DNA of 64,000 nt, from the NCBI GenBank assembly GCA_002343185.1, contig DDRT01000020.1, forward strand, positions 196,776 to 260,775, given 5' to 3'. The position numbers are program-made. Positions within the stretch are counted from its first letter, which is position 1. Each line of letters opens with the position of its first letter. Origin of the DNA: Deltaproteobacteria bacterium UBA2409. Its GTDB lineage: Bacteria; Bdellovibrionota_C; UBA2361; DDRT01. Of the stretch, positions 57,201-63,200 are shown piece by piece.

Positions 57201-60200
57201 GCAATCATAAACTGATATTCCAAGATTTTGAGCAACAATCCTATCCTTATTTAGATTCAAGAGGATTTAGAGTAGATATAGTGGCACTAACTAGGGCTAT
57301 TCAAAATCTGGAAGCTGGAACAGCAATAATACTTCACCCATCATGCCCTAACCCTGCAAGCTATCCATTATCAGAGGTTCAGTGGGATATGGTTTTAACT
57401 CAGATCTCTGAGCGTCAAAAAAGTGGTGATATTGTGCTCCCGATTTTTGATTCTGCCTATCAAGGGTTTGGTAGAGGTCTTGAGGAAGATGCTTATCCTA
57501 TTAGAAAAGCAGCAGAGCTAGGGTTAGAATTTTTTGTTGCTGAAAGCTATTCTAAAAAATTTGCTCTTTATAGACATCGAGTTGGGGCAGTTCACTTTTG
57601 TTCAACAGAATCTGAATCTAGAACTAATTTAATGTCACAAATTGGTACAACAGTTATAAGACCAACTGTTTCAAGTCTATCGATTGCAGGTGCTGATATA
57701 GCACACCGGGCTATGACAGACCATGATACTATGTTTCAAATTGAAAATTATCTTGAAACAAAAAGAAACGACTTTAAAATTAGAAGAGAATATTTGGCAG
57801 AAGCACTCGATATGCCTGGACTTATAAACGGGGAAGGGATGTTCGCCTTAATTCCAGGTATTGGCCAGGAAGGGCAGGAGTGGCTTTGGACTGAATGTAA
57901 CATAATGACAATTTATAACCCTTGGATTGACCCAAGTGGAGCTAATAACGACGCAATCAGGGTATGCTTAGATGCCTTAAATCATGAAAATATCGGTAAT
58001 TTTACAAATGCTCTACAACAGGTTAGAGCGCTAAATTAGAGTAAATATTTTTAGTTTCCTACGAAACTTTTCCCTCATTTCTTCGATAGAACATATAGAA
58101 GTATGTTAGGGGGGATGGAAAAGAGAGATCAGTTAATTGAAGAGTATAGAAAACTAGTTAGCTCTATTGCTAGGTGCTTACTAGATAAGATGTCACTCCC
58201 TATAGCAGTAAGAGAAGATATCGAATCAGCAGGGTTTTTGGGGCTAGTTGAAGCAGCAGATAGATTTAACCCTGAAACAGGAGTCCCATTTAGCCAGTTT
58301 GCAGCTATCAGAATTAGAGGAGCAATGATCGATTGGATTAGGGCCAGCTCCCATCTGACCGGTAGAGCCTACAGGATGGCTAAAGCTCTAAAAGGGGTCA
58401 CAGAGTTAAGAGAAGAGATAGAGCTATCATCAGTTGAAGGTGTTCTTGAATTTGCTTTTCAAGGGGCGCTTACCTTTGCTCTTAGTATGTCTGATGTAGT
58501 TGAAGAGGTGGAGGCTCTCCATGATCCAAGTCCAGATCCAGAAGAAGAATTAGTACAGAAAAGAACAGTTGAAATTTTAAAAGAGATAGTATCTGAGCTT
58601 CCAGAGAAAGAACGATCAATAGTTGAGCTCTATTATTTTCATGGAAAGACATTCTTAGAGATCTCTCACCATGACTCAGCTCTTTCGAAAGGATGGATCT
58701 CAAGACTTCATGCAAGAGCTCTTGAGATGATACGGGAAAAATTAATGGAAAGGGGTTATGCGTAAATTTTTTCTAGTTTTATTAATTTTAACTGGATGTG
58801 AGGAGTCAGTTCTTCATGATCTAACAGAGCTAGAAGTTAATAAGATGGTCACTCATCTTCACATTGTTGGTATAAATGCTTCAAAAGAGAAGCAGCCTGA
58901 TGGAAGATGGTCTCTTACTGTATCAAAAAGCGACGTTCCAAATGCGATGCAAGAGATTGAAAAAAATAGACTTGCTCCAAGAAGAGGAACAGATAAAAAA
59001 GAGGGGGGCTTGGGCTCTTCAAGAGATGAGCAGAGATATGCCTATGAAAGAGGGGTTAGTACAAACCTAGAGCTGACTTTGGAACGAATCCCTGGGGTTC
59101 TTGAGTCGCGAGTTCATCTGTCGCTTCCAAGTACAGATCCAATTTTTGGAACAAGGCTTCCAAGCAGCACTTCTGGGGCAAGTGTTCTTTTAATAACTGA
59201 ACCTAATACTGAGATAAACCAGGGTGAGATCGCAAAGCTAATCTCAGGTGCTAGTGGTATCGCCGAAGCCCAAGTTTCAGTACTAGTATCAGTGAGTGAA
59301 AAGCCCGTTGATGTACCTATACTTGTGAAGGCACCGATCTTTGATTGGCAAGATTTCATACCAACTTTAGGTATCCTTGCTTTAGGTGGCGCGCTTATAT
59401 TTCTAGGATTCTTTAAGAGAGGTGCGCGTGTTTAAGACAGTACTATTCCAAGAAATTGATGAGTACCTGGGAGTCAGCGCACTTTATCTAGCAGCTTTTT
59501 TCAAAAATCAGGATCTGATTTCACGAATGGAAGGTAATGTTGAACCCCTCTTAGATAGAACCTCAACTCTAAATCAAAGAGACTTAGTGGAGCTTTGTAA
59601 GTTTTATGCTGAGTCCCTCTGAAGAACATCTTTCAAGTATTATTTCAGGATTTATGAGTGAGAAGATCTGTCTTTTTGAGTCAGATGAAGACGAGAACAT
59701 ACTAGGAGTAAAATTCAATAGTTCATTCTTCATTGGATTTAATAATCCTTTAGAACTTCTTAAGTTTGGTTTTTTAAAAGGGTTCAATGTAGTTCTAGCT
59801 AGGGATACAGGGAAGATCTTTATTGGGGAAAATAAGCTTGGTGAGGAAGTGAGAGCTATATTTAAAGGACTACCTTCTTTAAAGCCAGAATTTTATCCGA
59901 GCTATAACGTTGGAGCTTATCTATTTTTAGACGAAAATGAGCAACTTTTTATTCAAGCAGGCTCTAGGACTTTTGAGTGTCAGTTTTTAGGAGAGGAGAT
60001 ATTAATTATGGAAGAAACAGATGAAGTTCTTCAAGTTTCAGTAACTTTAGGCACACTGGAGATGACTATCTCTGAGCTATTAGCCCTTCGGCCAGGGGGA
60101 ACAATCGAGCTACCCGAGGAGGCTATTTTAGTGATTGGAGGTGTTCAGATAGCAAAAGGTAGGGTTTTAGATGGAAATTTTAAGATTTCAAGGCTTACCC

Positions 60201-63200
60201 CGAAACTTTATCACACAAACTCCGATAAGAACTTACAAGTGGAGGTAATATGAGAATAGATTCGATTTCTAGCAGTTCAATTTTAGACAGAATACAGCCT
60301 GAACCAAAGGTTAAAGGCTCGTCATTTCTGAATGTAGCTAAAAGTGTCTTAGGTGCTGTTGCTGACACCGCGATTGATTCAGCAGTTCCTGGAGATATTA
60401 ATGCTCTTCTTGAAAAGCAGATGGCGATGCAGATGATGATGCTTCAGACATCAATGATCAGTAACGTTTCAAAGACCCAACATGAAGCCTCAATGGCTCC
60501 AGTTAGAAATATCAGAGCAGGATGAAAGAAACTGCTGTTACTATATTATTGGTGGGGGCGCTTGGAGCTATGCTCCTTCCGCTTCCACCAGTCGCGCTTG
60601 ATATTTTCCTAACAGGAAATCTTCTCTTTGCGCTTTCTTTATTGGTAATAGCACTTTATCTATCTGACACACTTAAATTGTCAGCACTTCCAACTTTATT
60701 GCTTGTAACAACTCTTTTTAGGGTTGCCCTTGGAGTAGCTACTACAAGGGCAATTCTATCTAAAGGAGAAGCAGGCCATGCTGTAGAAGCATTTGGCTCA
60801 CTTGTAATGCAGGGGAGTGTAATAGTCGGATTAGTTGTCTTTTCTATTATTACTCTTGTTCAGTTTCTTGTGATTGCAAAAGGTGCAGAAAGAGTAGCAG
60901 AAGTTTCAGCAAGATTTAGCCTCGATGCAATGCCTGGAAGGCAGATGTCTATCGATGCTGATGTTAGAACAGGGATGCTTGATCCAGATACAGCACGTAA
61001 GAAACGGCTTGAGCTTCAAACAGAATCAAGATTCTATGGGGCTCTTGATGGGGCGATGAAGTTTATAAAGGGTGATGCAATCGCAGGAATTGTTATCGTT
61101 ATAGTTAATATAATTGGCGGTCTTGCAGTAGGAATCCTAAGAGACGGGCTTCCAATAGAGCTTGCAGTGCAAAAGTTTACTCTTTTGTCTGTTGGAGAAG
61201 GATTAATCTCTCAGATCCCAGCTCTTTTGAATGCATTAGCAGCAGGACTTGTAGTTACTAGAGTTTCAAGAGAAGACGGAAGTTCATTGGCTGATGAACT
61301 TGTTTCTCAGCTTGGTCAATTCAATAAAGTAAAAGTGGTTGCAGGGTTTGCTGCATTTGGACTTGCTCTTATGCCAGGAATGCCATCATGGGTTCTTGTT
61401 TTTACCGGCTTAGGATTATTTTTAACAGCAGGGTTTAAGTCTGCTCGTGATGCACAAGATGTAAAGAATAAGATAGTTGTTTTTCAGCCAAAAGTTACAC
61501 CATTACTTTTAGTGGTAGTGCCTGTTAAGTCTCCCGTTCAAGGGCTTTCATTATCACTTGAAAAAGCAAGACAAAAAGTTTTTGAAGAATGGGGAATTCT
61601 ATTAACCCCTATTCAAGTTGCACTAAAGGATGCTGAAAAAGTTGAATTACAGTACAGAGGGGTTAGTGTTTCAAGGTTTGAACCAAACTCTGAATCACCT
61701 AGTAAGATAGAGGAAGCATTAGTCAGGCTGATAAAAGATTCACCAGATGAGTTTATTGATGATATTGCTGCAAGAAGAGTTATAGATTTTTATGAGGCTA
61801 ACTCTCCAGATGGGGTGAGAAGACTATTACCTGAAGATCTTAATTTCTCAAAAGTTACACAGGTTTTTAGGATGCTAGTTGCAGAGGGAATTCCACTTAA
61901 AAATGTAGATTTAATGCTTCAGGCATTTTGTGAGTTCGGTAAGAGAGATATTCACCCAAGATCTCTTTTGATTGAAGTTCGTCACGCACTTAGAAGGCCT
62001 ATTTGTTACAAGCTTCTAGAAGATAGAGAGAAGCTATCAGTAATGTCATTAGATCCAAGTGTTGATGTTACAATTCATGAATCGCTAAATCAGGATGGAT
62101 ATATTCCAGGGGAGATCTTCGAGTCTATTTCAAAAGAACTTTCACCAGATCATATACTGTTAACTTCGAGGAATATAAGACTAACTGTGAGAGAATATCT
62201 TCAAGCGAGAGGTATAAAGAATCCGGTTTTAGCTCATGATGAAGTAGTAGTGGAATTTGATATGGTTGGATATGTTGGAGGGGAGGATGAGGCTCTTGCT
62301 GCTTAGTATACTAATGGGCTGTGTTGCTCCAGTAAAAGAGGGAATAACTCCAAGGGCAGAAGAGATAATTGCTAAAGGTATACTTCACCTAAGGGAACGA
62401 AATCTGCCTGATGCCGATGCTAGTTTTAGGGCATCTCTTGAGCTTGAATACACTGCAGAGGGGTATGATGGTCTTGGATGTGTTGCATTTTTGACTGAAA
62501 AGTTCTCCGAGGCTGAAGGTTACTTCAAAAAAGCTAGAGAGATCTCCCCAAGCTATACACGCGCACTTGCGCATCTTGCCTTACTTGAAGAGGTAAAGGG
62601 TAATAGAGGAAGAGCAGCGCACTATTATGATCAGGCGTTAAGGGAAGATCCGGATGATGTATTTACAAGAAATAATTATGCTGCATTTTTAGCAGATGGT
62701 GAAAGGCCAGAGTCGGCTCTTCATGAGCTTAGAAAAGCAGAAGCACTTACGCCGCATACTATAGTTAAAAAGAATCGAGAAAGATTAGAGGAATTATGAA
62801 AACAAAAGAGAAAGAATCGCAAAATCAAGCAAAAAGAGTTATTGAGGTAAAAAAATCAAAAGACTCTCCTAATAAATTAAACATCTTATGGTCTGAAGCT
62901 GTAGTTGAGCTAAAGACTAGAAAATTTGAGAGTGAAGCAGAGATGCTAGAAACTGTTGTTGATCTTATTGCGAAGAAAGTATCTGGTGGGTCGGAGCTTA
63001 AAAGTTTTTTAGAAACAACCCTGTCTACTGATCCAAAGGCGATGGAGATACTTAGAAAAGAGCTTTTGTAGGGGTCTTGGGTACTTGGGGGTCAGGCCGG
63101 AAGGCCTGACCCCCAAGTAACTTATTGCATTGTCTTTTAGAAGTTAAATTTTAACGCAGAGGCCACAGAGTAGTAACTCAGTGTAACTCTGAGAACTCTG

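Follow-up and report, generated by a model that had tools for sequence, protein, structure and literature searches.

The closest described relative of the system considered here is the type III secretion system (T3SS) of myxobacteria known as T3SS*, which contains SctJ, SctI, SctQ, SctRSTUV, SctN, and SctL and is without a secretin or a needle (PMC10433427, PMC3459982). T3SS* is required for the lysis of prey and is seen as an intermediate between the flagellum and the injectisome (PMC3459982, PMC10433427, PMC12075869); the origin of the injectisome from the flagellum is still argued from this one intermediate (PMC3459982). Bdellovibrio bacteriovorus is stated to have no type III system besides its flagellum (PMC2797640), and no account of a system such as the present one was found in the literature on Bdellovibrionota. 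The DNA analyzed is a stretch of 64,000 nucleotides (hereafter the window) from Deltaproteobacteria bacterium UBA2409 (contig DDRT01000020.1, positions 196,776 to 260,775), which belongs to Bdellovibrionota_C. Near its right end is a cassette of eight genes (58103-63071). They probably make up one operon of a non-flagellar, T3SS*-like system that is scattered over the genome and stands beside a canonical flagellum.

The system most resembles the needle-less predation T3SS of myxobacteria. Compared to the T3SS* of Myxococcus xanthus (mxan_2434-2464), it appears to have a similar core set of SctJ, SctI, SctQ, SctRSTUV, and an ATPase with SctL, of which the ATPase and SctL part is taken from relatives. 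A secretin and a recognised needle are likewise not seen, and both systems occur in predatory lineages. In Archangium loci, tandem-FHA and TPR lipoprotein genes homologous to those of the present system lie side by side near SctV, and in one of them (L026) a small open reading frame (ORF) directly upstream of SctV resembles the C-terminus of the 91-amino-acid protein encoded before the cassette's export gate gene. Unlike T3SS*, which forms a single cluster, the present system is scattered over at least three operons and has a dedicated FliA-like sigma factor with sigma-28-class promoters. It further differs in an SctV-like gate that lacks subdomain 2 (SD2), in an SpoA protein with one SpoA domain, in an SctU encoded in two pieces, which are divided at the autocleavage site and separated by a kinase gene, and in having a flagellated host. 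No link to Kil/Tad was seen, unlike T3SS*.

Gene content and conservation of the cassette

The eight ORFs abut or overlap and all lie on the + strand, at the positions given in a preliminary description of this DNA. Together with two promoters they are as follows.

58063-58087, + strand: promoter P1, sigma-28-class motif GAAACTTT-N11-TTCGAT, upstream of the sigma factor gene
58103-58765, + strand: FliA-like sigma factor, 220 amino acids, with FliA_WhiG as the best specific family
58758-59435, + strand: SctJ-type inner-membrane ring lipoprotein, 225 amino acids, with YscJ_FliF domain, lipobox, two ring-building motifs (RBM1 and RBM2), and a C-terminal transmembrane (TM) helix
59422-59622, + strand: small ORF, 64-66 amino acids, conserved in position and weakly conserved in sequence
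59606-60253, + strand: SctQ/FliN-like protein, 215 amino acids, with FliMN_C (SpoA) domain
60202-60226, + strand: promoter P2, sigma-28-class motif GAAACTTT-N11-TCCGAT, within the 3' end of the SpoA gene
60250-60525, + strand: member of a conserved protein family, 91 amino acids, N-terminal PEP motif, directly before the FHIPEP gene
60522-62306, + strand: SctV/FlhA-family export gate, 594 amino acids, an FHIPEP protein without SD2, placed in a third FHIPEP clade
62257-62799, + strand: TPR lipoprotein, 170-180 amino acids, with a TPR match and a conserved lipobox; the start is probably at 62287
62796-63071, + strand: last cassette protein, 91 amino acids, with a basic disordered N-terminus and a helical C-terminal domain

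Gene calls place the start of the sigma factor gene at 58115, for a protein of 216 amino acids, and that of the TPR lipoprotein gene at 62287; these are probably the correct starts. In profile searches, the three small ORFs of the cassette matched no family.

Complete cassettes with the same gene order are present in the window and in seven further loci (L101, L005, L007, L089, L090, L091, and L100), which makes at least eight independent loci of the Bdellovibrionota type. The closest relative is L101, whose FHIPEP protein is 87% identical to that of the window; in the other six loci the identity is 43-47%. Partial cassettes occur at the contig ends of L009, L092, L093, and L096, and in L010 the last four cassette genes alone are kept together. 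A metagenome search with the C-terminal FHIPEP alignment as the query returned seven loci. The bearers of related FHIPEP proteins are labelled Bdellovibrionota, Oligoflexia, or "Deltaproteobacteria". From locus to locus, the genes that flank the cassette are unrelated.

In comparison with L101, the ratio of nonsynonymous to synonymous substitution rates (dN/dS) ranges from 0.03 to 0.25 over all eight genes, small ORFs included, with dS saturated. The individual values include 0.03 for the sigma factor, 0.06 for the TPR lipoprotein, 0.12 for both the SctJ-like lipoprotein and the last protein of the cassette, 0.16 for the SpoA protein, and 0.25 for the small ORF at 59422-59622, whose length is maintained in L101. 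Since gene order is the same across loci and dN/dS is this low, the cassette is neither a chance arrangement nor decaying. The eight cassette genes are real and constitute one conserved operon under purifying selection.

The export gate protein

The gate protein of the window scores 495 bits on the FHIPEP domain and keeps the invariant core residues of the family. On the equivalog models, it reaches 434 bits for FlhA (TIGR01398, cut-off 772) and 479 bits for SctV (TIGR01399, cut-off 692), and falls short of both. Canonical reference proteins score 880-927 bits on the FlhA model and 782-942 bits on the SctV model, and module-type proteins, meaning those from this and the related cassettes, score approximately 430-480 bits on both. 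All 34 family members prefer the injectisome hidden Markov model over the flagellar one, by 10-59 bits. Among sequences in the PDB, the matches of the window protein are YscV (325 bits), SsaV (318 bits), and FlhA (237-284 bits).

The matches listed in a search of a genome collection with the full FHIPEP alignment were mostly canonical FlhA and SctV proteins, and these served as a reference set. A neighbour-joining tree with bootstrap was calculated with 78 FlhA and SctV references, which cover many phyla. In this tree the proteins of the module form one monophyletic family (100% bootstrap), and the flagellar FlhA clade leaves it out in 100 of 100 bootstraps; a grouping within flagellar FlhA, which the preliminary description had put forward for checking, is thus not obtained. 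The sampled injectisome SctV clade leaves the family out in 82 of 100 bootstraps. Nor does the family nest inside the SctV proteins of Myxococcota (82 of 100), yet these are its nearest relatives by mean distance. The signal for the clades resides in the C-terminal cytoplasmic domain of FHIPEP. Judged from these models and trees, the gate protein is neither FlhA nor SctV and belongs to a separate third FHIPEP clade.

The cytoplasmic domain had been described as unusually short, and this is correct: SD2, of ~45-50 amino acids, and most of the linker are missing in 34 of 34 aligned family members. The predicted structure retains SD1, SD3, and SD4, and the four-subdomain (SD1-SD4) arrangement of flagellar FlhA with its full linker is not found in the family. 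Since SD2 is the usual chaperone-docking subdomain, its loss implies that the set of substrates would be narrow or unconventional.

A gate of similar length is known from Chlamydia. The short chlamydial FlhA (PRK05910, 584 amino acids) is found beside sigma-28 (PRK05911), and the module FHIPEP protein is likewise ~590 amino acids in length and encoded beside a sigma-28-type gene. Only module-type FHIPEP proteins span the whole PRK05910 profile; for canonical FlhA and SctV, the alignment is limited to the N-terminal 300 residues. The scores give no support to a chlamydial affinity, with 242 bits for the module protein and 237-280 bits for canonical proteins (cut-off 670). The resemblance is probably due to parallel reduction rather than orthology.

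The SctJ-type lipoprotein

For the lipoprotein encoded by the second cassette gene, the SctJ model gives 84 bits and the FliF model 24 bits. The cut-off of the SctJ equivalog TIGR02544 (162 bits) is not reached. Its architecture is that of SctJ, a stand-alone protein of ~190-250 amino acids with a lipobox and two ring-building domains, and the lipobox cysteine is invariant. An AlphaFold2 model is composed of RBM1, a linker, RBM2, and the C-terminal TM helix. When this model was searched with Foldseek, the top nine matches were PrgK, EscJ, or MxiJ (E ~1e-11), ahead of FliF. An integrative FliF-YlxF model (PDB: 9a67) is also among the fold matches.

The preliminary description had reported lipoboxes in both the SctJ-like and the TPR proteins and an alignment between the SctJ-like protein and the FliF of the window. 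Both lipoboxes are confirmed, and the alignment is located to the RBM2 region (30% identity over 96 amino acids, E 1e-7). It had also raised the possibility that orthologues of the lipoprotein are annotated as flagellar accessory proteins of the FlgP/FlgT type. This is not the case, as the orthologues are unnamed or are labelled EscJ instead.

A shared sigma-28-class promoter

The motif GGAAACTTTT-N11-YCGAWA was found by aligning the regions upstream of the sigma factor genes. In its strict form, it has two matches in the 64-kb window, compared to 0.12 expected. The second, P2, starts at 60202, which is 24 nucleotides upstream of the gene for the 91-amino-acid protein. Over the ~84 kb of the 409-kb contig that were read, there are three copies, and each lies a short distance before the start of one of the system's operons. 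P1 has the same position in L089, L090, L091, L100, and L101, and P2 has the same position in those five loci and in L010 and L092, with variants in L005, L007, L009, and L096. In L005, both promoters (6800-7030 and 9500-9690) have a variant -10 element, GGAAATWTTTT-N8-9-CGGCGA, and a matching change at both promoters suggests co-evolution of the sigma factor with its promoters.

The strict motif has no match in the 78 reference FlhA/SctV loci, and within the window it is absent upstream of flgB and of the flagellin gene. Nor does the window contain the canonical sigma-28 pattern TAAA-N14-17-CCGATA, and no sigma-70 promoter or terminator signals were enriched. The flagellar sigma-28 promoter consensus is TAAAGTTT-N11-GCCGATAA, to which the motif is close, and promoters of the TAAA-N15-GCCGATAA class are, in the form of this motif, present across genomes at every start of an operon of the system.

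The sigma factor itself has regions 2 and 4 (Sigma70_r2/r4). FliA_WhiG is its best specific family at 99.8 bits, below the cut-off of 189.6, and in tblastn searches of the fetched loci its best matches were the fliA genes of flagellar loci (28-33% identity). The FliA-like sigma factor would be the protein that binds the motif. The preliminary description had assigned the sigma factor to the FliA family and had spoken of a sigma-28-type regulator belonging to the cassette itself. Both statements agree with these results, the latter in that the motif marks the cassette but neither flgB nor the flagellin gene.

The left-edge operon

The third copy of the strict motif is 50 nucleotides upstream of the first gene of an operon that starts 4.6 kb before window position 1, 56 kb upstream of the cassette (L103, 3492-11172). 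Its gene order is SctI-like, a 211-amino-acid ORF, SctR', SctS', SctT', the N-terminal part of SctU', a kinase, the C-terminal part of SctU', an FHA protein, and an 83-amino-acid ORF. The sctI-, sctR-, sctS-, sctT-, and sctU(N)-like genes are located 1.5-4.6 kb past the left window edge on the same contig, and the following features are inside the window.

1-1562, + strand: 3' part of a PAS/GAF/HisKA/HATPase sensor kinase gene, 1005 amino acids (L103, 6684-9701), between the two sctU halves
1559-1822, + strand: SctU/FlhB-like C-terminal fragment, 87 amino acids, the part after the NPTH autocleavage site
1862-2785, + strand: tandem-FHA protein (Pfam FHA) with one C-terminal TM helix and no periplasmic domain
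2782-3033, + strand: 83-amino-acid ORF with a signal peptide, last in the operon, with no family match

SctR' passes the cut-off of the EscR/YscR/HrcR model NF009438 (187 bits, cut-off 179) and not that of FliP (138 bits, cut-off 217). SctS', SctT', and SctU' are under both the flagellar and the injectisome cut-offs; SctT' scores 39 bits on the FliR model (cut-off 169). The N-terminal part of SctU', 219 amino acids and just outside the window, stops exactly before the NPTH autocleavage site, and the C-terminal fragment scores 66.7 bits on flhB_rel, 52.9 bits on FlhB, and 52.2 bits on SctU, each below its cut-off. For the 88-amino-acid SctI-like ORF, which is also outside the window, the SctI domain gives 21 bits (cut-off 23.45, E 2e-4). 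In the Archangium T3SS loci L026 and L033, a gene that adjoins the one for SctV encodes an FHA-FHA-TM protein of the same architecture as the FHA protein and 42% identical to it (E 2e-11). The FHA protein may correspond to the cytoplasmic FHA portion of SctD.

The earlier statement that the window has no SctR, SctS, SctT, or SctU needs to be amended for SctU, whose FlhB-like C-terminal half is at 1559-1822. It stands for the others, which are encoded beyond the left edge. It had also been considered that ordinary fliPQR-flhB genes might be found just beyond the window. Homologues are indeed there, but they are not ordinary ones, given the FliR score of 39 bits against a cut-off of 169, a FliP homologue of the SctR type, a split SctU, and the promoter of the cassette.

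Two-component genes are also present near the cassette in L089 (15340-16050), L090 (18620-19375), L092 (3707-4453), and L100 (4341-6149). They include REC-HisKA hybrids and, in L100, a CHASE4 kinase. The recurrence of kinases near the cassette together with the kinase inside the split sctU hints at signal-dependent control.

An ATPase and FliH-like protein pair in related genomes

In related genomes, a divergent pair of genes for a FliH/SctL-like protein and an ATPase is found close to the module or elsewhere on its scaffold. In L091 the pair is located 3 kb from the module, and in L099 and L102 the two genes come after murJ. The synteny of murJ, FliH-like gene, and ATPase gene extends over 8527-12300 (- strand) in L091, 7675-11326 in L099, and 5486-11335 in L102. 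Between murJ and the FliH-like gene, the promoter motif is present in L091 and L099 and, in degenerate form, in L102.

These ATPases are members of a large family and score ~440-456 bits on both the SctN and the FliI models (cut-offs ~590-630). They form a clade of their own (100% bootstrap), apart from SctN and FliI, and may be described as a third type. The FliI of the window groups with flagellar FliI, and a third-type ATPase joins it in 2 of 100 bootstraps. Both the ATPase tree and the promoter in common with the cassette argue against the alternative that the L091 ATPase is simply the flagellar FliI of its lineage. Compared with FliI, the third-type ATPase is no nearer to the chlamydial ATPase model.

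The remaining cassette proteins

The SpoA protein is composed of an unannotated N-terminal domain and a single SpoA domain. In L090, L091, and L100 it is divided into two genes, an arrangement that may be compared with SctQ/SctQc or FliM/FliN.

The 91-amino-acid protein that precedes the gate has a strongly conserved C-terminal pattern of ...SNIEKSxHExxMAxxRNIRxG, and its family comprises at least 151 clusters among 1.84 billion representatives. A small profile of the family searched against the PDB had a sole match, to the C-terminal helix of a needle protein (7y6c_F), which was weak (E 0.34). A larger profile returned noise plus the same weak needle match, and no Pfam family. Among 16,595 ORFs of the reference loci, the best matches, also weak, were small ORFs that adjoin SctV or SctJ in injectisome loci. 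One of 129 family members matched T3SS_needle_F, and an hhalign comparison with needle sequences gave another weak link (P 6e-4). Each of these links is weak by itself, and all of them agree in direction. Tentatively, the protein may be a needle- or inner-rod-like (SctF/SctI) axial protein. A relationship to FliE (P 0.81) and a paralogous relationship to the 88-amino-acid SctI-like ORF (P 0.68) were both ruled out. A tblastn match in L079 was spurious, being inside a pyrH-like gene (identified as PyrH/UMP kinase by eye).

The TPR lipoprotein is weakly similar to the TPR lipoprotein encoded next to the FHA gene in the Archangium T3SS loci. The C-terminal helical domain of the last cassette protein is conserved in the alignment. 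In the PDB, its profile matched only a designed protein and mS35, and there was no meaningful Pfam match. An anti-sigma or chaperone-like role for this protein would be speculation.

Comparison with the flagellum and canonical injectisomes

With the flagellar export apparatus, the module system shares a homologous core, a FliA-like sigma factor, a FliH-like/ATPase pair, and frequent flagellar neighbours. Unlike the flagellum, its FHIPEP protein and ATPase are outside the flagellar clades, its ring protein is a stand-alone SctJ lipoprotein and not FliF, and it has an SctI-like protein and not FliE. Rod, hook, FliG, and Mot genes are not present in the module operons.

In common with the canonical injectisomes (Ysc, Inv-Mxi-Spa, Ssa-Esc, Hrp, and Rhizobiales), the system has the SctJ architecture, the SctR subfamily match, and an SctI-like protein, and its FHIPEP protein is slightly nearer to SctV than to FlhA. 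In contrast to these injectisomes, the SctV-like protein and the ATPase are far below the equivalog cut-offs, SD2 is absent, and regulation is of the sigma-28 type. No translocon or tip protein of the kind found in injectisomes was seen in the module system.

Interpretation

From these comparisons, a provisional picture of the system may be drawn. The sigma factor would drive both its own gene and the structural operons, a case of positive autoregulation. The export gate would be composed of SctR', SctS', SctT', SctU', and SctV' within a ring of SctJ'. The ATPase pair would join the SpoA and FHA proteins in the cytoplasmic platform. Both the SctI-like and the 91-amino-acid protein may be short axial substrates, and the TPR lipoprotein a periplasmic or outer-membrane scaffold. 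By analogy, a role in cell contact or predation would be the most likely one, because the composition is homologous to that of T3SS* and the phylum is predatory. The preliminary description had offered two possibilities. The present results are in accord with the first, a T3SS-like machine apart from the flagellar operon and under a sigma-28-type regulator of its own. They do not support the words "minimal", "reduced", or "cryptic", as at least three co-regulated operons are found when the FliH/ATPase pair of the relatives is counted, and all eight genes are under purifying selection. The other possibility, an accessory ring tied to the flagellar gate, is disfavored.

A number of observations weigh against assigning the cassette to a separate, T3SS*-like system. 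The N-terminal membrane domain of FHIPEP taken alone does not resolve the clades, and the trees are neighbour-joining trees only, in which a fast-evolving orthologue can be drawn mid-branch. The Prokaryotic Genome Annotation Pipeline (PGAP) calls some members of the FHIPEP family FlhA. Neither a secretin (SctC) nor a full-length SctD was found in the module loci or the left-edge operon, the identity proposed for the 91-amino-acid protein is based on individually weak scores, and function is drawn by analogy only. In the ~84 kb of contig that were read, there are no canonical flhA or fliPQR genes and no third-type ATPase/FliH pair. Flagellar genes are also neighbours of the module. In L007 these are flgE and flagellin, in L090 flagellin, and in L091 a FliK-like gene; in L099 an isolated fliG (4369-5370) is a few kb away from the ATPase pair.

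Several of these points would fit a genome with a single type III system, in which the cassette and its partners encode a diverged and sole flagellar FlhA, FliPQR, and FlhB, the SctJ-like, TPR, and small proteins are accessories, and the motif marks the FliA regulon. The sigma factor is FliA-like and its promoter of the sigma-28 class, flagellar genes are often within 10-27 kb of the module, the PGAP names point the same way, and the flagellar operon of the window is itself without flhA, flhB, and fliPQR. This explanation is nevertheless unlikely. The FHIPEP protein lacks SD2 and is outside a flagellar clade drawn from many phyla in every bootstrap, SctR' passes the cut-off for SctR and not for FliP, and an SctI-like gene heads its operon. 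Both FliF and an SctJ ring are encoded, although the place that they would take around the gate is the same. FliF, FliI, and FliE are canonical, the motif is absent before flgB and the flagellin gene, and the third-type ATPase almost never joins the FliI of the window. Cassette products might instead join flagellar parts as an alternative gate or ring, for instance at one stage of the life cycle, or might act mainly in a secretion-coupled sigma/anti-sigma switch, for which FliA-FlgM is the model and in which one of the small proteins would be the anti-sigma factor that is exported. The sigma gene does head its operon and appears autoregulated, two small conserved proteins are co-transcribed with it, flagellar genes are nearby, and the ATPase pair was not found in the contig sequence that was read. 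Such a mixed assembly or switch is improbable when set against the dedicated SctR'S'T'U' operon with the same promoter on the same contig and the dedicated ATPase and FliH family in relatives; these cover most of the known core, though no SctC or full-length SctD was seen. For the switch, family and profile searches of both small proteins gave no FlgM-like signal. It is very unlikely that the cassette is what is left of a decaying injectisome, or of a flagellar locus that was duplicated, and now serves no purpose. In favour of this are the core genes that the cassette lacks, the loss of SD2 from the SctV-like protein, the split SctU, and scores under the equivalog cut-offs. Against this, purifying selection extends to all eight genes with dS saturated, and lineages with 43-47% FHIPEP identity have preserved the gene order, the reading frames, and the promoters. 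The invariant FHIPEP core residues are retained, and the small-protein family has at least 151 clusters.

For the T3SS*-like system beside a flagellum, the genome would presumably also encode a canonical flhA, flhB, and fliPQR as well as a third-type ATPase, since FliF, FliI, and FliE are canonical, FliF and an SctJ ring are both encoded, and the gate and the ATPase belong to third clades. The recurrence of flagellar genes near the module may reflect regulatory or functional coupling.

A further step would be to regard the cassette, the left-edge operon, and the FliH/ATPase pair as a third, early-branching type III secretion lineage that split off near the transition from flagellum to injectisome and operates as a sigma-28 regulon in prey contact or lysis beside the flagellum in Bdellovibrionota. 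This is possible but doubtful. If true, the system would be a living intermediate in the evolution of the injectisome, and the view that Bdellovibrio-like organisms have no non-flagellar type III system would be overturned. Next to the myxobacterial intermediate, the system would be a second and structurally different relative, in another predatory phylum and in cells that are still flagellated, with a sigma-28-type regulon, a gate without SD2, and a naturally split SctU switch protein. It would offer an independent means of ordering the events in the origin of the injectisome, namely the change from FliF to SctJ, the loss of chaperone docking, and the change in regulation. The cassette points to an unexplored secretion machine in Bdellovibrionota. 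The conserved motif may be used to define the regulon in any genome, and the 91-amino-acid family may serve as a specific marker gene.

Flagellar genes and other features of the window

The flagellar operon, flgB-flgC-fliE-fliF-fliH-fliI-fliJ, is at 31956-37959, where the preliminary description had put it. FliF scores 372 bits (cut-off 130), and FliI scores 593 bits on FliI_clade2, just under the cut-off of 629.8. By their sequences, FliF, FliI, and FliE are taken to be canonical flagellar proteins. Within the operon (33152-35542), fliF is followed by fliH with no fliG between them. The last gene (37252-37959) encodes a YlxF-like protein with an MgtE_N domain, a position at the operon end that it also has in the fla/che operon of Bacillus.

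The flagellin gene of the window (29131-31056, - strand) encodes 641 amino acids, and a large FG-GAP beta-propeller insert separates the conserved N-terminal helices from the C-terminal ones. In L090, a gene for a similar flagellin of 624 amino acids (12761-14635, - strand) directly adjoins the cassette. The FliK-like protein encoded in L091 has a Flg_hook domain, and its gene likewise directly adjoins the cassette. A further FG-GAP protein is encoded in the window at 22508-23539. Two adjacent and overlapping thymidylate kinase paralogues, 218 and 226 amino acids in length, are encoded at 46916-48249.

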